34,803 nt of DNA. It comes from a phage. A model generated the notes under the pieces. The model had not been told where the DNA came from and ran no database searches. It was given only the letters and a program-made list of their open reading frames with translations. A program made the position numbers and the translations under genes. Shown piece after piece: positions 13,166 to 34,437 of the stretch. The first letter of the stretch is position 1, and every line of letters starts with the position of its first letter. The stretch lies in assembly GCA_021149145.1 (NCBI GenBank), contig GCA_021149145.1_4322.1; one strand, written 5' to 3'.

Positions 13166-13286
13166 ATTCGTTACTCCTGATTGGTTGCCCTTCGTTAAGA
13201 TGAAACCATGGTATCATGAATATACGCGTTATCAAGTGTTATGTTGTGTTTATATCTGCATTGGTTACGCTTTTTGACCTCTCAGC

Positions 13287-13300
13287 CCAGCTATAGCTGG
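13287..13300. repeat. 14-bp perfect palindrome CCAGCTATAGCTGG
   Basis: Read directly; the AGCTATAGCT core recurs at 33072-33081 in the paralogous control region. Confidence 0.8.
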
Positions 13301-13440
13301 TGTAATTACCCTGTGTAAGATTTTACGCGGATTCGCCGGGGGTATGCATATGTATCTATATAGATAAAATTAGTAGTTTTCATAGAAAAACTATCGACCC
13401 ATCCATACGACCAATCTACACCATATACATACATATATAC

Positions 13441-13526
13441 AATAATAATAATAATATAGTAAAAGGTTGATATATATAGATATTATTATGTAACCATTGC
13501 GTAATCTAGCGTGGTAGGCGTATATG
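13441..13526. repeat. AT-rich control element, copy A (paralog of 33236-33320)
   Basis: (AAT)5 + identical 29-mer AGTAAAAGGTTGATATATATAGATATTAT (13458-13486) + GCGTA-type repeats at ~10-bp spacing (13499, 13509, 13518). Confidence 0.75.
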
Positions 13527-14595: not shown

Positions 14596-14622
14596 AACTC
14601 ACCGCCACGGATGGCGTATATT
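14578..14622 (+). promoter_or_regulatory. Motif-type promoter (element + TATATT)
   Basis: AATAGCACTAATTGCTAAA, 22 nt, TATATT, then conserved leader CCATCGAAACGAAAGAGAG before the ATG at 14655. Confidence 0.45.
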
Positions 14623-14654
14623 TACTCCATCGAAACGAAAGAGAGCAAGAGATC

Positions 14655-22324: not shown

Positions 22325-22362
22325 TTTCTTTCTCTCTTTGTGTGTTTCGTTTCGATGAGTTG

Positions 22363-22407
22363 ATAATACACCAACTCACCAGTTCGTCTTTGGAAATTCG
22401 TGCTATT
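22363..22407 (-). promoter_or_regulatory. Motif-type promoter (element + TATTAT)
   Basis: Minus strand AATAGCACGAATTTCCAAA, 22 nt, TATTAT, leader ...CTCATCGAAACGAAACACAC; the element's TAG is the VRR-NUC stop codon. Confidence 0.45.
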
Positions 22408-22823: not shown

Positions 22824-24533
22824 TCAATCCTCCATCGTAAATGATTTGTTGGCGATAATATCTTGAGACTTCTGGTTTTTACGGTGTGTGATTCTCAATG
22901 GGGCACGGAATAGATGTGCATTTGTCATAATCATTCTAGCATTACGCAATCTGCCAATTCTGAATGCCTCATTCCTGTTATCGATGTGTGTTGAGCAGAA
23001 AGCCTTCCATTTAACAGAGCAAACGCGATGGTCTGATTCAGGGAAGAATGTTTCATAAGCTCGGAATCTGTCACCACTGTGAGCCATAACCTCATATGAA
23101 GCAATAATCCCTGACTGGTTCTTTGTTAACCCAATCTTGAAGTCATAAACTCGCAACCAGTCCCCCTTACGATACATTTTTCCTGATAACTTAGCATTCG
23201 GGTCTATGAGCATCTCACCACAGCATCTGCAATTCTTAGCTGCAATATCATTCTTCTCACCGCATCCTTTCTTGATGATAGCTTTGGTCTGTGGGTCCGC
23301 CATATCTTCACACAGTATAAACTGAAAGAAGTGCTCGCAACGCTTACCGTCAATTACATTATTACAACGCCGTGCGAACGGAGAGTTCTCATAAGAACAT
23401 GCCGGGCATACCCTAGGTTCATCACCTCCTTTCCTTGATGACTTAAACTTCTGGTCCTGAACTTCTTCTATAATTGGGTCAAAGTAAAGCTCTGCCATAT
23501 CGTCAAGCGTTCCGGCGAAATCGAGAACAACATGGTCTTCTTTTACCATCCCTGAATCCTTGTGTTTTTTCTTAAGAATTCGCATACCACGACCAAGCAA
23601 CTGAATGAGTAGAGTAATGCTACCAACCTTCCTCAGGATAATGCTTGTATCCCACGGGGGGCAGTTTACGCCAGTTGTGAGGCAACCAATCTGAAATATG
23701 AACTTATATTCTCCGTTGGCTGCCTTCTCAAGTATCTCTCTACGCTTCTTCTCACCAGTGGAGTTGGTAACTATCGCCCAAGTAACACCTTCTGGAAGTG
23801 CGGCTGCCGCCTCCTCGCAATGCCGTTTGCCAGCGCAAGTTACCAATGCAGCATTCCTTGTTTCCATAAACTTAGCAGCAAATCTCATTATCTTTTGTGT
23901 CATCGTTTGGTTTTCGTGAATCTTTGCAGCCATCGCATCCATTTCTTTCTTGCTGAAGTCCTTAACCCCATCACTTCCATCAGGAGTGAACTCACTAAGG
24001 TCGTAGCCCAAATCACCAACTTCACCGTAGACAGTAGGAACAACGAACCCCAAGTCAACAAGGTAGCTGGTTGGCACTTGCATTACAGTTTTGCGCCAGA
24101 ATCCACGGACATTTGGGTTACTAACTACAATGTGGTCGTTGTTACGGTACGGGCTACCAGTTAACCCAAAGATACGAAGTTCGCGACCGTACTTCTCCCT
24201 GCATCGACGCTTCATTTCGGTAATGATTAACGTGTATTGCGCGCGACCAGTGCCAAGAAGCCCGGTATTCACACCATCCTTAAAGACCATCTCACCATTC
24301 TTCGTGCTCATCTGCTCGAATGTTTCCTCATTCTCTTCAGCTTCTACGATATCCATATGGTCCACCATGTGGCAATTATGTGCCACGACCCCGTCAGCAA
24401 TGAAATTATGGTGCTCAGGCATCTCTATATCCCAAACAAGTTCCTTGCCAATTGGTGAGATGTCTTTAATTTTGCTTGATTTTGTATTCCACGCCATTTT
24501 CCATGTGCTTACTAATTCTCTTAAAAAACTCAT
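22824..24533 (-). CDS. Helicase, C-terminal part: 53-aa intein C-terminal segment (blocks F/G) fused to C-extein
   Basis: Starts with ATG right after an in-frame stop; ...ELVWDIEMPEHHNFIADGVVAHN|CHMVDHMD...; C-extein carries helicase motif VI-like QLLGRGMR and a C-terminal Cys cluster. Confidence 0.7.
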   Translation of the reverse strand: MSFLRELVSTWKMAWNTKSSKIKDISPIGKELVWDIEMPEHHNFIADGVVAHNCHMVDHMDIVEAEENEETFEQMSTKNGEMVFKDGVNTGLLGTGRAQYTLIITEMKRRCREKYGRELRIFGLTGSPYRNNDHIVVSNPNVRGFWRKTVMQVPTSYLVDLGFVVPTVYGEVGDLGYDLSEFTPDGSDGVKDFSKKEMDAMAAKIHENQTMTQKIMRFAAKFMETRNAALVTCAGKRHCEEAAAALPEGVTWAIVTNSTGEKKRREILEKAANGEYKFIFQIGCLTTGVNCPPWDTSIILRKVGSITLLIQLLGRGMRILKKKHKDSGMVKEDHVVLDFAGTLDDMAELYFDPIIEEVQDQKFKSSRKGGDEPRVCPACSYENSPFARRCNNVIDGKRCEHFFQFILCEDMADPQTKAIIKKGCGEKNDIAAKNCRCCGEMLIDPNAKLSGKMYRKGDWLRVYDFKIGLTKNQSGIIASYEVMAHSGDRFRAYETFFPESDHRVCSVKWKAFCSTHIDNRNEAFRIGRLRNARMIMTNAHLFRAPLRITHRKNQKSQDIIANKSFTMED

Positions 24534-25514
24534 CTTGTGCCGACCTCGTTGTTATTGATACTGAGTAAAGCTCTCTCTTTTTCTTGCCGCCAATATAGCT
24601 TCTAACCTTAACTCCGTCATTAGCAATAAATGCTATTAGCGCATCAACTACTGATTGAACTTCACTCCTGCTAAATGATTCGGTGTGGATTTCTACAACC
24701 CTCTTCCCTGAGCTTACAGTGCAATGACCATCATCACCAAAGTAAGCAGCCCAACCAACTGGATCAAGCTCTCTGCATATCTTTCCAATATCGTAACCAT
24801 CCTTAGAATTTCCGTACTTATCAGCATATGAATCCAGAACTTTCGTACATGATGTTGATACGCAAAACCAGTTGTCGCCAAATCCAGGGTTTTTCTTCTC
24901 CCTGTATCTAGGGTTTAGTTTTGCAAACCTTTCAACCTTGCTTAGTGCGTGCTCCTTATTTCCAATATTCCAAGATAGCCTATGCGTTCCTTTTTCTGTA
25001 TTTTTAATCAAGCAACCATCACCAGCCATTGCCGCAAGAATGTTTTGATGTAAAAAGTCATCAACCTCCATTGATGGGTTGACGGTTGAATTATGATGCC
25101 CCGTTCTGTAATCCAAATAGAAATCGAAAGGGTTCTTAAGAAGTACGCCTAACCCCTTGCTTGAATGCGGCATAACTTTTTCACCACAGCCACACTTGCA
25201 CGCAGGAGCTTTTTCGTAAATTTGTCCTGCGAGCCGTCTAGCGACAGATTCATCCCAATACGAAGTTTTCCCGCTCCTACCCAGCAGCCGTTCGAATAAA
25301 GTTTGTGTGTACTCGTGCATTTTATTTCCTCTCCGCTTTCTAATTTAATTGATGATACATGTCTTACACCATTAGTAAAAACTCTTTTTGGCTTATGATA
25401 GAAGTAATCACCAGTGCTTTCGTTTATGCATTTTATTTTATGATTGATAAGGTCTTCGCTATCAATCCTCATCATCCCTGAATCGGTGGTTATCATCGTG
25501 TCTCCAGTTAAGCA
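24375..25514 (-). mobile_element. Intein (1140 nt, 380 codons) in helicase motif II, with LAGLIDADG endonuclease encoded in a shifted frame
   Basis: Block A CLTGDTMITT directly after ...VIAIDE; block B KCTSTHKLY; blocks F/G VWDIEMPEHHNFIADGVVAHN then C; joined exteins read DE-CH. The two splicing domains share one frame; the endonuclease ORF is in another. Confidence 0.75.
24466..25320 (-). CDS. LAGLIDADG homing endonuclease (intein-internal or free-standing)
   Basis: 284-codon ORF with its own ATG, two LAGLIDADG-like motifs (ILAAMAGDGCL, AAYFGDDGHC); overlaps the flanking ORFs by 172 and 68 nt. Confidence 0.65.
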   Translation of the reverse strand: MHEYTQTLFERLLGRSGKTSYWDESVARRLAGQIYEKAPACKCGCGEKVMPHSSKGLGVLLKNPFDFYLDYRTGHHNSTVNPSMEVDDFLHQNILAAMAGDGCLIKNTEKGTHRLSWNIGNKEHALSKVERFAKLNPRYREKKNPGFGDNWFCVSTSCTKVLDSYADKYGNSKDGYDIGKICRELDPVGWAAYFGDDGHCTVSSGKRVVEIHTESFSRSEVQSVVDALIAFIANDGVKVRSYIGGKKKRELYSVSITTRSAQDEFFKRISKHMENGVEYKIKQN

Positions 25515-25958
25515 CTCATCTATCGCGATAACAGCAGGAGCATAGTCACCAAGCCCCTTAAACAAGCCGTTAGCAGCCGTTCCCTCACTAGCCACTATGG
25601 TTGGATAGTAAACTGATTTAACGTTAAGGCCAGCGCAATAGACGCTATTACGGATGCCGAAATTACGAAGTTCCTCTGCGTTCTGGCTGACAATCTCTGA
25701 CTGGCGAGATAGGACCATGTAAGGAAGGCCAAGCTGTTCCATTCGTTTCCCAATCATGGCGAGAATAATCGTCTTGCCAGCCGAAACCGATAGGTCTGCT
25801 ATGAATGGCGCTTCGTACTTGCCAATAGCCTTTCCGATTGCGTCAAATGTCACGCACTGGAATGGGTATGGTGTGATTTCTCCGAACTGATAATCATTTT
25901 GAATCTGCTTGATTTTATCTTGGTCAAAGTTTGCTACTAAGCGTTCTACTGGAAGCAT
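25149..25958 (-). CDS. Helicase, N-terminal part: N-extein (148 aa, Walker A SVSAGKT, Walker B IAIDE) fused to 121-aa intein N-terminal segment
   Basis: ORF ends at TAG after intein blocks A and B; same frame as the C-terminal helicase ORF. Confidence 0.7.
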   Translation of the reverse strand: MLPVERLVANFDQDKIKQIQNDYQFGEITPYPFQCVTFDAIGKAIGKYEAPFIADLSVSAGKTIILAMIGKRMEQLGLPYMVLSRQSEIVSQNAEELRNFGIRNSVYCAGLNVKSVYYPTIVASEGTAANGLFKGLGDYAPAVIAIDECLTGDTMITTDSGMMRIDSEDLINHKIKCINESTGDYFYHKPKRVFTNGVRHVSSIKLESGEEIKCTSTHKLYSNGCWVGAGKLRIGMNLSLDGSQDKFTKKLLRASVAVVKKLCRIQARG

Positions 25959-26054: not shown

Positions 26055-26528
26055 ATGTGTAAAATTGACAAGCGAACTATTAACGGCAATAACGGGACCG
26101 TCCGCACGCAAGACAAGAAGCAACGCAAGCGACCTTCAGGCTACTACGTATTGAAAGATGAAGTAAAGGCTGGTCTACGCGCGCGTCTGGAAATGATTCT
26201 TGATTTCTACGGCACGAAAGCCAATATCGCCAAGCAGTTAAATGTATCTCACCAGACTGTAGAGCAATGGTTTAATCGCGGGATGATTTCGGCTCGAGGG
26301 GCTCAGAGAGCGCATAATGCGTACAAGCGAAATAAGGAAGGGTTCCGAGCTACATTCTGCCGACCAGACCTGCAATTCGACGGTAACGGAAAGCCGCTAA
26401 CACTTCGATGCAAGAAACGCCATATGCTTCGCGTAGTTACCGAGGCAGAACTAGCAATAAAACCACCCTGTCGACCGTGGCGCAAGAATAAGATTGCTAA
26501 CGAAGCAGCACGAAAAGCTAAAGGGTAA
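26055..26528 (+). CDS. Putative HTH DNA-binding protein (157 aa)
   Basis: Basic N-terminus; HTH-like segment TKANIAKQLNVSHQTVEQWFNRGMIS; first rightward gene from a divergent region. Confidence 0.45.
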   Translation: MCKIDKRTINGNNGTVRTQDKKQRKRPSGYYVLKDEVKAGLRARLEMILDFYGTKANIAKQLNVSHQTVEQWFNRGMISARGAQRAHNAYKRNKEGFRATFCRPDLQFDGNGKPLTLRCKKRHMLRVVTEAELAIKPPCRPWRKNKIANEAARKAKG

Positions 26529-26579
26529 GTGATTGGATGTGCCATAATAGGCACATCCTTTTTTATTGGAGAGAAGAAA

Positions 26580-27059
26580 ATGAACTGGCATGATTATTTT
26601 TACTATGTAGATGGCAAATTGCATTGGAAGATTAGCACTGCAAGACGTGTTAAGGTTGGCGATGAGTGCAACTCACTATCTACATCTGGCTATTACAAAG
26701 TGTCTGTTAATGGCTTTAGGACTTATGTACATAGAGTTGTGTGGGAGATGTTTAATGGATAACTTCAAAATGGCGACTACATTGATCATATAAACCATAA
26801 CAAATTAGATAACAGAATAGAAAACCTAAGAGTAACAACAAATCAAGGTAACTCAAGAAATTGCAAGCTTAGCGTTTTATCAACAACTGGTTATTGTGGA
26901 GTGGCAAAGCTAAATCACGGAAAATTTAAGGCTCACATCACGGTTGACGGCAAGCAGCTACACCTTGGTAACTTCGATACTCCAGAACGGGCGTATAAAG
27001 TAAGAATTGAAGCAGAGAGAAAATACAACTTTCACGAAAATAACGGGTTAAGCAAATGA
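26580..27059 (+). pseudogene. HNH-AP2-type homing endonuclease interrupted by an in-frame TAA (26760-26762)
   Basis: GGAGAGAAG RBS; MNWHDYFYYVDGKLHWK...HRVVWEMFNG, TAA, then same frame LQNGDYIDHINHNKLDNRIENLRVTTNQGNSRN (HNH) and an AP2-like tail; stop overlaps primase ATG (ATGA). Confidence 0.6.
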
Positions 27060-27979
27060 ATTACGATAAGAATGAAGTTATACCTAAGATGGCCGGATTG
27101 TGGAAATCATTTTATGTAAAGGAACTTGGTTGGAATGATAGACACATAAGTAAGAAGCACGGACCATGCCCATGCTGCTTTGGCACTGACAGATTCAGAT
27201 TTACCGACGAAATAGGCAGTGAAAAAGGAAATGGCGCGGCAGTTTGTTCGAAATGCGGAAGTGACTCCGGTATAGGATGGGTCATGAAGTGCACCGGATT
27301 GTCCTTCGCCGATTCAGTAAATTTGCTTGGTGACTGGCTGAACTTAACACCAATTGAGGTTATAGTTAAAGCAAACAAGCAAGCCTCGAGAACTAAGCGT
27401 TACAAAATGGGCGCTCAAGTCGACCATGAGAAAGTCCTGGAGGTTATGGAGAGAACTAAGAGAGTGGAATCGAGTCCACTCACGACATACGAGGGTATTT
27501 ATGACGCGTTTGGTTTTGATGTTGGTATAGCTAAAAATGGTTCAATGATTCACGCAATCCCTTGTTCGATGGTTTATGAAGATGGGCTTAGTGATGAGTT
27601 CTGTAACGTAATGTTTATCGATGAGGATTCAAATGTTAAGTTCCTTGCTGGTGATTACACTCGTGATTCTGTTTCCGTTATTGGTTCTAAGCAGGATGAT
27701 AGTTATACTTATGTTGTTGACAATTATATTGATGGCATGCGTGTTCACCTTGCTACTGGTGGGCGCGAAGTGTTTGTTGCTTTCTCCTGTTACAATATGG
27801 AGATGGTTATCCACCGCGACAAGTCAAGGAAGTTCAGAATTGCTTGCCGTGATTCTGATAGCGATATACTCGCCGTTGCTGACGATAGGGGTGTTGATGT
27901 TGTAGTTCCTAATGACGGTGAGTCATTTAAAACAGGCATACGAAAGAAAGTGTACAAAGCAAACGACTTGCTAAACTAG
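27056..27979 (+). CDS. DNA primase (zinc ribbon plus TOPRIM-like region)
   Basis: 307 aa; N-terminal Cys4 ribbon GPCPCCFGTDRFRF...AVCSKCG typical of primase zinc-binding domains; acidic DxD-like clusters later (CRDSDSDILAVADDRG). Confidence 0.55.
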   Translation: MNYDKNEVIPKMAGLWKSFYVKELGWNDRHISKKHGPCPCCFGTDRFRFTDEIGSEKGNGAAVCSKCGSDSGIGWVMKCTGLSFADSVNLLGDWLNLTPIEVIVKANKQASRTKRYKMGAQVDHEKVLEVMERTKRVESSPLTTYEGIYDAFGFDVGIAKNGSMIHAIPCSMVYEDGLSDEFCNVMFIDEDSNVKFLAGDYTRDSVSVIGSKQDDSYTYVVDNYIDGMRVHLATGGREVFVAFSCYNMEMVIHRDKSRKFRIACRDSDSDILAVADDRGVDVVVPNDGESFKTGIRKKVYKANDLLN

Positions 27980-28000
27980 CCTCCTTCGGGAGGTTTTTTA
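27978..28000 (+). terminator. Rho-independent terminator after primase
   Basis: CCTCC-TTCG-GGAGG hairpin followed by TTTTTTA. Confidence 0.75.
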
Positions 28001-28064
28001 TTGCCTGAAAGATGGTAGAATGAATTTTGGCAATTAGTGCTACTTTACAAATGGAGACTTTACA

Positions 28065-30518
28065 ATGGCAATTTATGACTTAGGAACAGCATCGCTAGCC
28101 TCAAATGGCGAGGTTACTGGCGTAGGTACTACATGGAAAGCACCTCTTACACTGATTCGTGTAGGTGCTACTATCATTTTCAAAACCAGCCCTCTGAAAA
28201 TTTACACCATCTCTGAAATCATCAGCGATACTCAGGTTAATGTTTATAATCCAAGTTCTGAAACTGTTCCCGCTGGTACTGGTTACGCAATTCTTGCTCA
28301 TGATGGAATTACTGTTCAGGGGTTGGCGCAGGATGTTGCGGAAACATTGCGTTACTACCAGTCAAAAGAGACTTCTATTGAAAGTCTACTGCAATTTATT
28401 GGTCAAGATACTTTTGATTGGCCTCGTCTTGAACAACTGGCAACTCAGTCAACTACCGGAGCTGCCGAGGCGCTTGCTAGTCAGATCTCTGCCGCTGAGA
28501 GTGCCTCTACAGCGGTAGGTGCTAGCAATAACGCACAAAATTCATATAACAGGACGGTTGCAGCAATAAATGCGGCTGGAAATACAGCGGCTGTTGCTTA
28601 CTTTGCTGATCACGGAATAGGTAGCACGACAACGCCATTTCTTACCTCTTTAGATTGGCAAACAATGCAATTTTGTTCCGGAGGTCGTTATCAGTGCACA
28701 CTTAGGGATATGTTAAACACCCCAAAAGAAATTAGTTCAATGTTTCCGGTTTCAACAACTCCTATTTGTATTGATGTTATTGCAACTAGGGGTGTTAATT
28801 CGGCTAGTGTATTAAGGTTATCTCCGTCTACTGGGTCAAACTCAAATTTTAGGATTGCAGATGTCACAATTTCTGGTGCGACTGGATCTAGGGTTTTTTA
28901 TGTAAGGGAAGCACTAAGCTTGCCTGGCGGTGATGCTGCAACTGGTGGAGCAAGCGCGTCAAGGGTTAGGGGGTTGCTTGATGTTTACTCAAAGGGTGAG
29001 GTGTTATCAATTTTAAATACAGATTCAAAAAAAAGCACATCAAGCTATGGCGGCTCAATATCTTCAGCAATAGAAACCGCTGGCGATGGCGGGTCGGTAG
29101 TTATAGGCCCGGGAACTTATGAGAGTAATAACTACTCCTTTGCTGGCAGGAACATATCAGGCTCTGGATATAATACCGTAATAAGTGTTAAACCTTTTGA
29201 AACCGGACTCACATCAACGCTATCGGTTCCGCACTGGAGGCAAAAGCATTTATCGGATTTGCAGTTTACAGGTACTGCAATACAAGGTAATAACGGCTTT
29301 CAATTCCCGGATGACCCTTATGCTGGAAGGGTTGTATTGGATAGGCTTTACTTCAATGACCTGGATGTTGGTATAAGGAAAAATGCTGGCAACATTGGAA
29401 ATACCTACAGAAACGTAAGTGTTAGAAATGCGAATTACGGGTATAGAGCAAAAGCTCATGACAAAATGCATATAGGATCGGACACTTTATACGGATACCA
29501 CTCAGATACAATCTCTCAATATTCAGTAATGCTAGATGCGACAAGCACAAGTAGCGCAACGAACCATGGCGCTGGAGGAATTGGTGGGTGGTGGATTAGG
29601 GATTCAATAATGGAGGACTCTGCTGGCGGCGGTATAAGGTTAAAGAATAAACCTGGAGATTGCCCAACATCACCTTGCGGATTGTCTAACGTATGGTTTG
29701 AAGCGATAGCAACTGGGGGAGCAGTTAACGTAGGTGAGGGAGCTGAACTCCCAAGGGTTTTGAAGCTCATCGATACGTCCGTTTTCTTTGCTGAGCATTC
29801 TTATATTAATAACATTGAGTTATCAAATTCAAACCTTGTAACTTATGGGTGCAGGTTTGATAACGCTGATGGGCGCCAAAGTTTCTCTCTTGATTCGAAC
29901 AGTATTATTTTTGCTAAGGATGCATACCTGAATGGATCTTCAACATCAAACGTTATAGTTGAGTCGCTGGTATCACAGACAGCCAAGATAACGGGTACAT
30001 CTGACTTATCTGTTAGAGGATATGTTACTAAAGGTCGAGTTTTTAATCCAGATTCCGGAACTGTTTTAGTCAGGAGGCCTTTTGGTACTGGTGGGAGCAA
30101 CTTTGGTGGAACAGCGTCGGCAAGTGAAGGTCCTGATACAAGGGGTATACACTCGCTATCATCTGGATACTACGAATTGCTTGGTGCGGCTCAGTACGAA
30201 TTGATAAATGGTGCCTTTAATATAACCGCTGGCAAATGGTATGTTTGGGGTATCTCTGCAAACAGAATTCAAGGTGGTGCTGATGGTGTTATCCGTATTT
30301 TTGGTAGAGCATCTTTAGGGCAGGTATTCACTGAGGGCGGTAAGTGGGTTCACACATTTGGAGTTGCTCAGGCTTCAGTCTCTGGCACTGCAAACCTGCA
30401 TATCAACCTTAATGGGCTACCTGGTATGGCATTAAGTCTTGCTGATTACTTCGTTGTAGAGTTCGATAACCAAAGAGACGCTTTAATATTTGCCAACTCA
30501 AGGATGGCGCTTCAATAA
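28065..30518 (+). CDS. Tailspike / tail fibre protein with probable beta-helix (depolymerase-like) domain
   Basis: 817 aa, GGAGA RBS; Gly/Ser/Thr/Asn-rich repetitive central region of the kind seen in right-handed beta-helix tailspikes; flanked by terminators. Confidence 0.55.
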   Translation: MAIYDLGTASLASNGEVTGVGTTWKAPLTLIRVGATIIFKTSPLKIYTISEIISDTQVNVYNPSSETVPAGTGYAILAHDGITVQGLAQDVAETLRYYQSKETSIESLLQFIGQDTFDWPRLEQLATQSTTGAAEALASQISAAESASTAVGASNNAQNSYNRTVAAINAAGNTAAVAYFADHGIGSTTTPFLTSLDWQTMQFCSGGRYQCTLRDMLNTPKEISSMFPVSTTPICIDVIATRGVNSASVLRLSPSTGSNSNFRIADVTISGATGSRVFYVREALSLPGGDAATGGASASRVRGLLDVYSKGEVLSILNTDSKKSTSSYGGSISSAIETAGDGGSVVIGPGTYESNNYSFAGRNISGSGYNTVISVKPFETGLTSTLSVPHWRQKHLSDLQFTGTAIQGNNGFQFPDDPYAGRVVLDRLYFNDLDVGIRKNAGNIGNTYRNVSVRNANYGYRAKAHDKMHIGSDTLYGYHSDTISQYSVMLDATSTSSATNHGAGGIGGWWIRDSIMEDSAGGGIRLKNKPGDCPTSPCGLSNVWFEAIATGGAVNVGEGAELPRVLKLIDTSVFFAEHSYINNIELSNSNLVTYGCRFDNADGRQSFSLDSNSIIFAKDAYLNGSSTSNVIVESLVSQTAKITGTSDLSVRGYVTKGRVFNPDSGTVLVRRPFGTGGSNFGGTASASEGPDTRGIHSLSSGYYELLGAAQYELINGAFNITAGKWYVWGISANRIQGGADGVIRIFGRASLGQVFTEGGKWVHTFGVAQASVSGTANLHINLNGLPGMALSLADYFVVEFDNQRDALIFANSRMALQ

Positions 30519-30548
30519 AAAAAGCCCCGAAAGGGGCTTTATCTTTTA
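30517..30548. terminator. Bidirectional rho-independent terminator between convergent tailspike and SSB genes
   Basis: A7-GCCCC-GAAA-GGGGC-TTTATCTTTT. Confidence 0.8.
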
Positions 30549-30977
<429 letters not shown>

Positions 30978-31668: not shown

Positions 31669-31698
31669 TCCCCATCTCTCTTTCGTTTCGATGGGGTA

Positions 31699-31743
31699 AT
31701 GATACCCCACCTGTTAATTTTGTCTTTAGCAATTAGTGCTATT
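31699..31743 (-). promoter_or_regulatory. Motif-type promoter (element + TATCAT)
   Basis: Minus strand AATAGCACTAATTGCTAAA, 22 nt, TATCAT, leader ...CCCATCGAAACGAAAGAGAG; the element's TAG is the exonuclease stop codon. Confidence 0.45.
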
Positions 31744-32908: not shown

Positions 32909-33071
32909 TTCTCTATCTCTCTATTGTTGCGTGCTTTCGATTAGTTAATGATGCCGTACGCACAACGCATAGTCCAATTGGTATCACCTATTAATTAATC
33001 AAGTATACGCGTATAATTTTGTAACTACGTGTAGACATTGGCATGAGTTACGTTTTTAGCCACTTAAGCCA

Positions 33072-33081
33072 AGCTATAGCT
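33072..33081. repeat. Palindrome AGCTATAGCT (paralog of 13287-13300)
   Basis: Read directly. Confidence 0.7.
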
Positions 33082-33235
33082 CAATGTAAATAGTGAGTAT
33101 ACCGTGTATACCGATTTTAGCGGAGGGTGCATAGGTATAGGTGCTGCGCAATACTGTATAAAATCACATGGTATAAAAATTATAAGCGGAACACTCAAGA
33201 ACAGTAGTTACATGATATACAAGATATACATATAT

Positions 33236-33320
33236 AATAATAATAATAAGAGTAAAAGGTTGATATATATAGATATTATAATGTAACTATGGCGTAAACT
33301 GGCGTAACTGGGCGTATACG
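33236..33320. repeat. AT-rich control element, copy B, with three GGCGTA repeats at exact 10-bp spacing
   Basis: (AAT)4-5 + identical 29-mer (33251-33279) + GGCGTAAACT / GGCGTAACTG / GGCGTATACG at 33291, 33301, 33311. Confidence 0.75.
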
Positions 33321-34139: not shown

Positions 34140-34166
34140 AGACAAATCCCAAGGATGAGATATCAT
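34122..34166 (+). promoter_or_regulatory. Motif-type promoter (element + TATCAT)
   Basis: AATAGCACGAATAGATAAA, 22 nt, TATCAT, leader ...CCATTGAAACGAAACACAC, AAGGAA RBS, ATG at 34208. Confidence 0.45.
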
Positions 34167-34177
34167 TACTCCATTGA

Positions 34178-34437
<260 letters not shown>

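Follow-up and report, generated by a model that had tools for sequence, protein, structure and literature searches.

A tailspike-like lateral tail fiber gene at the canonical primase–SSB locus of an Rtp-like Drexlerviridae phage, with a conserved putative promoter and inverted repeat upstream

The window analyzed here is the whole of contig GCA_021149145.1_4322.1, a 34.8-kb stretch of phage DNA, and the gene under study is an 817-aa open reading frame (ORF) at 28065–30518 on its plus strand, which encodes a lateral tail fiber (LTF) or tailspike protein. The first gene of the window is a tail terminator gene, after which the sequence runs through head, terminase, and replication genes, so that the window is a partial phage genome whose tail genes lie beyond the contig ends. 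By its best nucleotide matches, the locus is closest to Escherichia phages AN_ECEAS and ES (88.6% identity), and other Rtp-like phages (Drexlerviridae, Braunvirinae) are 74–90% identical at the locus. The LTF ORF starts with ATG and has a GGAGA Shine-Dalgarno sequence 8 nt upstream. Its product begins with MAIYD, as do the homologs of the closest relatives (MALY in T1). The exact protein sequence is already present in NCBI, where it is named 'hypothetical protein'.

The upstream neighbor is a primase gene (27056–27979) with a zinc-ribbon primase domain (Zn_Ribbon_Prim). Downstream, on the opposite strand, lies the gene for a single-stranded DNA-binding protein (SSB; 30549–30977, phrog_44) with a C-terminal DDIPF, past which are found an Erf recombinase and then a PDDEXK exonuclease. 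ORF calling and domain matches confirmed the 817-aa ORF between primase and SSB that a first-pass annotation, made from the sequence alone, had reported. That annotation had also considered the position isolated, a view which comparison with relatives did not support. One gene order is common to AN_ECEAS, Rtp, phiA2-1, Rao1, DTL, and T1: a helicase gene on the opposite strand, a helix-turn-helix (HTH) regulator, an HNH endonuclease in some of them, primase, tail fiber, and a bidirectional terminator, followed on the opposite strand by SSB, Erf, and exonuclease VIII. The fiber at this locus varies from 362 to 960 aa among these six phages. The locus of the Drexlerviridae LTF gene has been placed between the recombination and the primase/helicase genes, with the gene conserved at its 5′ end only (BASEL paper, PMC8594841, S1C Fig). 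Since the gene order is identical across relatives and agrees with that statement, the position is not peculiar to this genome; the slot between primase and SSB is the fixed, canonical LTF locus of the Drexlerviridae, from T1 gp26 to Rtp gp50, and has been recognizable as a trait of the family ever since T1 and Rtp were sequenced. The claimed distance of the gene from a structural module on the left of the window applies to the head genes only, as the window is partial and the J-type tail gene of relatives lies ~4–5 kb past the recombination genes.

The features of the gene and its flanks are as follows (window coordinates, strand, and feature).

27978–28001, plus strand: intrinsic terminator after the primase gene, with stem AGCCTCC/GGAGGTT, loop TTCG, and a T-run (hairpin 27978–27995, −10.7 kcal/mol, z −2.7)
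28013–28021, plus strand: predicted extended −10 element TGGTAGAAT (TGnTAnAAT), from sequence and conservation, with a predicted start at ~28027–28029
28026–28045, minus strand: inverted repeat copy of 20 nt, AAGTAGCACTAATTGCCAAA, with a core palindrome TAGCA-n5-TGCTA, spanning roughly −2 to +18 at the predicted LTF promoter
28053–28057, plus strand: Shine-Dalgarno sequence GGAGA, from sequence and alignment
28065–30518, plus strand: LTF/tailspike gene (817 aa), an ORF matching phrog_24092 (aa 1–322) and phrog_27367 (aa 325–816), both 'tail fiber protein'
28065–28364, plus strand: conserved N-terminal anchor (aa 1–100), a small beta domain ending at AETLRYYQS, and left cassette boundary (tblastn, blastn, and AlphaFold2, AF2)
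28314–29021, plus strand: predicted Ala-rich helical bundle (aa ~84–182), beta 'connection' domain (aa ~190–290), and linker helices (aa 298–321) (AF2)
29094–30041, plus strand: right-handed parallel beta-helix (aa ~344–659) in the predicted structure
30060–30515, plus strand: predicted C-terminal beta-sandwich (jelly-roll, resembling a carbohydrate-binding module, CBM) and terminal helix (AF2 secondary structure; local Foldseek matches to CBM4-2 and CBM22)
30521–30540, both strands: bidirectional terminator common to the LTF gene (plus) and the convergent SSB-Erf-exonuclease operon (minus), and right cassette boundary (−15.0 and −15.5 kcal/mol per strand)

The N-terminal anchor is shared very widely. 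Searches with tblastn retrieved 942 phage records, nearly all of which match only in the N-terminal part, typically over the first ~110–130 aa. Identity is 53% to T1 (aa 1–113), 78–79% to Rtp, and 33–37% to lambdoid side tail fibers. The motif MA(I/L)Y...AETLRYYQS (~100–125 aa) is present, and invariant columns occur throughout aa 1–140. The anchor is of the Drexlerviridae/lambdoid Stf type, in contrast to the head-binding, gp10-like, or T7-type adapters of other tailspikes. A sequence search of the PDB matched aa 1–172 to Depo32/DpK2 (7vyv, 7vz3, and 7lzj; E 2e-32) and found only this anchor region, with no match for the C-terminal two thirds.

Comparison of the locus across relatives revealed sharp breakpoints. 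In blastn alignments with phiA2-1, Rtp, Rao1, DTL, and others, homology is continuous from primase through the intergenic region to 28364–28369 (codon ~100) and picks up again at 30511–30519, at the stop codon and terminator. In second-tier relatives it extends to ~28516–28525, in a few to ~28381, and only AN_ECEAS and ES are homologous across the whole gene. Many Rtp-like and Veterinaerplatzvirus fibers share the anchor, bundle, and connector (the first ~310 aa, 57–86% identity) and carry other C-termini, namely PF12708, PF13229, PF27114, PF13884, PF25670, PF18668, or SGNH-type; the same anchor is thus fused to at least seven C-terminal families, among which we take pectate-lyase-3, beta-helix, S74 chaperone, tail-spike-N, and GDSL to be represented. 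Conversely, proteins sharing aa 320–817 (33–48% identity) have N-termini of the PF09008 (P22 head-binding), PF18668 (Tail_spike_N), or PF03906 (T7 tail-fiber) families, and the C-terminal module was also detected in an annotated tailspike of a Kagunavirus, in the tail fiber region of Gamaleyavirus Bp4, and in a Kayfunavirus.

These observations uphold the proposal of the first-pass annotation that the gene is a swappable host-range cassette. Because homology breaks at codon ~100 and the C-termini differ, what relatives have at this position is not one identical gene but a gene whose C-terminal part varies. The segment from codon ~100 to the stop codon behaves as a recombinational cassette, which family members exchange among themselves as well as with phages of unrelated families. 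The tailspike and cassette reading has already been published for this family (BASEL paper), and the gene itself is an ordinary, already described feature, one more allele of the highly mosaic T1-like repertoire. Base composition gave no sign of recent foreign origin in any part of the gene when compared with the window (GC content 43.5–43.8% vs 43.5%). The precise borders of the cassette (codon ~100 at AETLRYYQS on one side, the stop codon and terminator on the other) are natural splice points for host-range engineering in Drexlerviridae.

T1 gp26 and Rtp gp50 are the counterparts with the same locus, ~100-aa anchor, upstream terminator, extended −10 element, and inverted repeat. Beyond codon ~100, however, the LTF of the window is unrelated in sequence to either of them, and the lengths differ (817 aa vs 728 aa in T1 gp26 and 960 aa in Rtp gp50). 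The GenBank note on Rtp gp50 describes a putative tail fiber with a beta-helix fold whose similarity to T1 gp26 is N-terminal only. In phage TLS, a 78-kDa structural protein has been assigned to the corresponding gene (PMC11447400).

The AF2 model of aa 320–817, based on an alignment of 37 homologs, has a predicted local distance difference test score (pLDDT) of 92.7 and a predicted template modeling score (pTM) of 0.90, and consists of a long stack of short strands, then a beta-sandwich, then a terminal helix. Structure prediction had been suggested earlier as a check for a beta-helix fold, and a right-handed parallel beta-helix is indeed predicted at aa ~344–659. The top Foldseek matches were the tailspikes K2-2, Sf6, CBA120, P22, and HK620 (probability 1.0 for K2-2, Sf6, P22, and HK620), and the structural matches comprise phage tailspikes, depolymerases, and pectin-lyase-fold enzymes, in agreement with the earlier description of the product as tailspike-like and polysaccharide-directed. 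Tailspikes of podo-, sipho-, and myoviruses (P22, Sf6, HK620, CBA120 TSP2, and Klebsiella K2-2) combine a beta-helix with a C-terminal beta domain, as is predicted for the LTF, although sequence identity to these solved structures is only 9–14%. Relatives of the C-terminal module at 44–48% identity are of the P22 type in that they carry the head-binding domain PF09008.

The body of the protein had been described as Gly/Ser/Thr/Asn-rich and repetitive. The composition was borne out (G+S+T+N make up 33–41% of each protein segment), but the gene proved free of sequence repeats; the regularity of the body is the structural regularity of the beta-helix rungs only.

The model of aa 1–340 is less certain, with a mean pLDDT of 63. 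Strands of the anchor fall within aa 2–79. The helices at aa 84–182 have low confidence in the monomer and are compatible with a trimeric bundle such as that of Depo32, and the connection domain (aa ~190–290) is compact, with pLDDT 80–93. Foldseek with this model gave nothing significant (best E 0.06, to an F1-ATPase barrel).

The closest architectural relative is Depo32, a trimeric K2 capsule depolymerase with experimentally shown activity, from a KP36-like phage of the Drexlerviridae (PMC10581125). Depo32 and DpK2 (Klebsiella phage GH-K3 gp32) have the domain order of the LTF, namely anchor, helix bundle, connection domain, beta-helix, and CBM, whereas sequence identity in the beta-helix of Depo32 is ~10% and Depo32 has an extra C-terminal domain. 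Its activity is experimental and that of the LTF is predicted, and its K2 specificity is not transferable.

From the family and the solved relatives, a likely mode of action can be proposed. The first ~100 residues are the family-wide anchor, which would fix a presumed trimer to the tail, with trimer formation and tail attachment through this anchor probably as in the relatives. A helical bundle and a small connector follow, and the distal two thirds form the predicted beta-helix and C-terminal beta-sandwich. This distal part presumably binds, and most probably cleaves, a host surface polysaccharide, either O-antigen or capsule. This would provide reversible primary adsorption and give the central tail tip access to its receptor in the outer membrane, and host range would then be set at the glycan level.

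On this evidence, we have high confidence that the gene encodes the LTF of an Rtp-like Drexlerviridae phage, built like a tailspike, located in the canonical slot, cassette-like in its evolution, and organized as its own transcription unit. Several points weigh against this reading. A Pfam scan of the whole protein returned zero families even at E ≤ 1 (and so no PF12708, PF13229, or PF09008), although matches to PF12708 or PF13229 are common among relatives that share the anchor; the beta-helix assignment therefore rests on predicted structure. As the prediction is that of a monomer, the trimer and an inter-subunit active site are outside its reach. Some beta-helix fibers bind without cleaving. 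Five acidic residues of the beta-helix (D513, E517, E546, D599, and D610) are invariant in the 37 homologs, which is compatible with catalysis but is no proof of it, and since these homologs form a fairly narrow family (≥33% identity), the invariance is weak evidence for an enzyme. The contig carries no host or serotype information. Finally, read-through from the primase unit is a possible contributor to LTF expression.

Within the polysaccharide-directed reading, the beta-helix module is a depolymerase candidate that would act on the O-antigen or capsule of some E. coli or Citrobacter serotype. A variant of this reading, which does not exclude the general one, is that the ORF is a capsule (K-antigen) depolymerase and not an O-antigen tailspike. 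We regard this as rather doubtful: sequence homologs of the module were found in phages of E. coli and Citrobacter and in P22-like prophages, whose tailspikes classically target O-antigen, and similarity of fold says nothing on specificity. Another explanation is that the beta-helix is a non-catalytic adhesin which binds a surface glycan, the lipopolysaccharide core, or a protein without degrading it. It seems unlikely to us, because the homologs of the module behind P22-type head-binding domains are annotated tailspikes, the five acidic residues do not vary, and Depo32 is an active depolymerase.

Intrinsic terminators on both sides, reported earlier, were found again at 27978–27995 (with its T-run) and 30521–30540. 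The upstream hairpin is kept in relatives by compensatory changes (CCTCC/GGAGG vs CCGCC/GGCGG in T1), and bidirectional terminators are annotated in T1 at the same place as the downstream one. The gene had been said to have no recognizable promoter of its own except an orphan copy of the inverted element, and a generic sigma-70 scan for two-hexamer promoters likewise listed none upstream of the LTF gene on the plus strand. We aligned the primase-LTF spacer of seven phages and then compared 47 distinct upstream regions of homologous genes. The extended −10 motif TGnTAnAAT, represented in the window by TGGTAGAAT between the terminator and the inverted element, stands at a fixed place in 37 of the 47 regions across subfamilies, T1 included, while the neighboring bases vary. 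T1 has in addition a −35 hexamer (TTGCAA-17 nt-TAAAAT), whereas no acceptable −35 was found in Rtp-like sequences; the two-hexamer scan misses the LTF promoter because there is no −35. This conservation suggests that the extended −10 element is the LTF gene's own conserved promoter, contrary to the earlier claim. The layout of terminator hairpin, extended −10, inverted 20-nt element, Shine-Dalgarno sequence, and ATG is conserved, and the gene would form a small transcription unit of its own, set off by a terminator on either side, in which the extended −10 precedes the inverted repeat at the predicted start site and the Shine-Dalgarno sequence and ORF come next.

The inverted element just upstream of the gene is present at 28026–28045, pointing away from the gene as described before. 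It occurs in 24 of the 47 upstream regions, always together with the extended −10 and, in all 24, at a distance of 4–5 nt from it, and its conservation equals that of the 5′ coding sequence of the LTF gene. From the Rtp-like phages to T1 the element keeps this place directly behind the extended −10, which argues against its being an orphan. It is improbable that the LTF gene lacks a functional promoter, depends for its expression solely on read-through or antitermination of transcripts from the regulator-primase unit, and is accompanied by a decayed promoter relic: the empty sigma-70 scan, the Rtp-like sequences without an acceptable −35, and the absence of a −10 in the element's own orientation would fit such a model, but TGnTAnAAT is fixed in most upstream regions, T1 adds a −35 at 17 nt, the element keeps its distance to the extended −10 with the conservation of a coding end, and a relic would not last across phages as far apart as the Rtp-like ones and T1.

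The inverted element is a known sequence. It belongs to a family described in TLS, T1, and Rtp as the '21-nt direct repeat', aaATAGCACnnnTTGnTAAAA, for which the function was listed as an open question (PMC11447400). That publication does not report the spacing to a −10-like hexamer described below or the inverted copy at the LTF gene, and TLS itself lacks the latter. In the window, the repeat AAATAGCACnnnTTGCTAAA is followed by a −10-like hexamer at 19–21 nt in 13 of 15 copies, compared with 8% at random positions. The same spacing was found for 16 of the 21 copies in the whole T1 genome and for 157 of 185 distinct copies over all fetched loci. The window copies with a −10-like hexamer, from the repeat scan, are the following.

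7356, 11180, 12525, 18808, 22389, 24619, 26025, and 31725, minus strand: repeat copies with a −10-like hexamer
13764, 14577, 15357, 33373, and 34121, plus strand: repeat copies with a −10-like hexamer

The repeat copies precede genes and run in the direction of their transcription, as in the published family. Given the fixed spacing of 19–21 nt to the −10-like hexamer, the palindromic core is placed near −42, and the −35 region of these repeat-type promoters is poor. The repeats look like activator-dependent or UP-type promoters; a position near −42 is where a class II activator would sit. The copy at 28026–28045 has GGCAAT at the expected −10 place and no −10-like hexamer in its own orientation. 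Since it also runs opposite to the LTF gene, it is a differently used copy and not a standard member of the repeat-promoter family. In T1, the LTF copy is likewise the only one so arranged among the 21.

At about −2 to +18, the LTF copy occupies an operator-like position. One tentative possibility is that the inverted repeat over the predicted LTF start is a genuine operator, such that a single factor has opposite effects at the standard promoters and at the LTF gene. In such a scheme, the factor would bind the repeat centered near −42 at ~14 standard promoters of the window and, bound at +8 of the LTF promoter, would have the opposite effect; early and middle genes would be driven, and the LTF gene, as the sole structural gene amid replication genes, would stay silent until late. 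The factor might be a host protein or a dimeric DNA-binding protein; a speculative candidate of the latter kind is the 157-aa HTH protein whose gene lies two genes upstream (26055–26528, a homolog of T1 gp23, with weak P22_Cro/HTH matches). What is new here is the conserved arrangement of extended −10 and inverted repeat at the LTF gene, a testable lead on the T1-like repeat; if the operator model is true, the '21-nt repeat' would gain a function.

Two other roles for the element were considered and rejected. As a hairpin in the 5′ leader RNA, a role rejected as the main explanation, it is weak (−3.9 kcal/mol, z −0.2), and by our own reading of the sequences the natural left-arm variants TATCA and TACCA break the pairing without compensation. 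As a leftward promoter, antisense to primase, it lacks a −10-like hexamer at 19–22 nt in the window and in T1, and our own reading of the seven-phage alignment indicated the same for Rtp.

A further conserved leader, CATCGAAACGAAAGAGAG, comes after the −10 and before the Shine-Dalgarno sequence at several of the repeat-type promoters (14607–14645, 22333–22373, 31676–31714, and 34161–34189; repeat families D3, I3–I4, and I9), and may be a common 5′ untranslated region element. Two other direct repeats, each of 53–55 nt and with identities of 72% and 91%, are shared by intergenic regions that are ~19.8 kb from each other (13246–13512 vs 33029–33305; families D7 and D12).

Additional observations concern the neighboring genes and the contig. 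SSB contains a pure run of 24 glutamines, encoded by a CAG/CAA repeat (30567–30638, minus strand coding), directly before its canonical FNDDIPF tip; this polyglutamine linker is unusually long and pure, and the triplet repeat that encodes it is prone to slippage. An HNH endonuclease gene, located between the HTH regulator and primase in phiA2-1 and DTL, has a ~90% nucleotide match at 26580–27059 on the plus strand of the window, where it is broken into two short ORFs (26529–26762 and 26901–27059), a sign of either a pseudogene with a frameshift or an error in the sequence. The helicase gene (22824–25958, minus strand), a homolog of Rtp gp53 (664 aa), has an insert of 1086 nt after codon ~155. 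The insert is a multiple of three in length, has weak matches to intein-splicing motifs at both junctions, and is open in its middle solely in another frame (ORF 24466–25320); it is an intein whose homing-endonuclease core is either decayed or mis-assembled. The contig is deposited under Escherichia coli (third-party annotation, TPA, assembly; protein LUL88_004434), yet it is a fragment of a virulent T1/Rtp-like phage genome, and the label is probably due to contamination with phage, or to a carrier state, in the culture that was sequenced.

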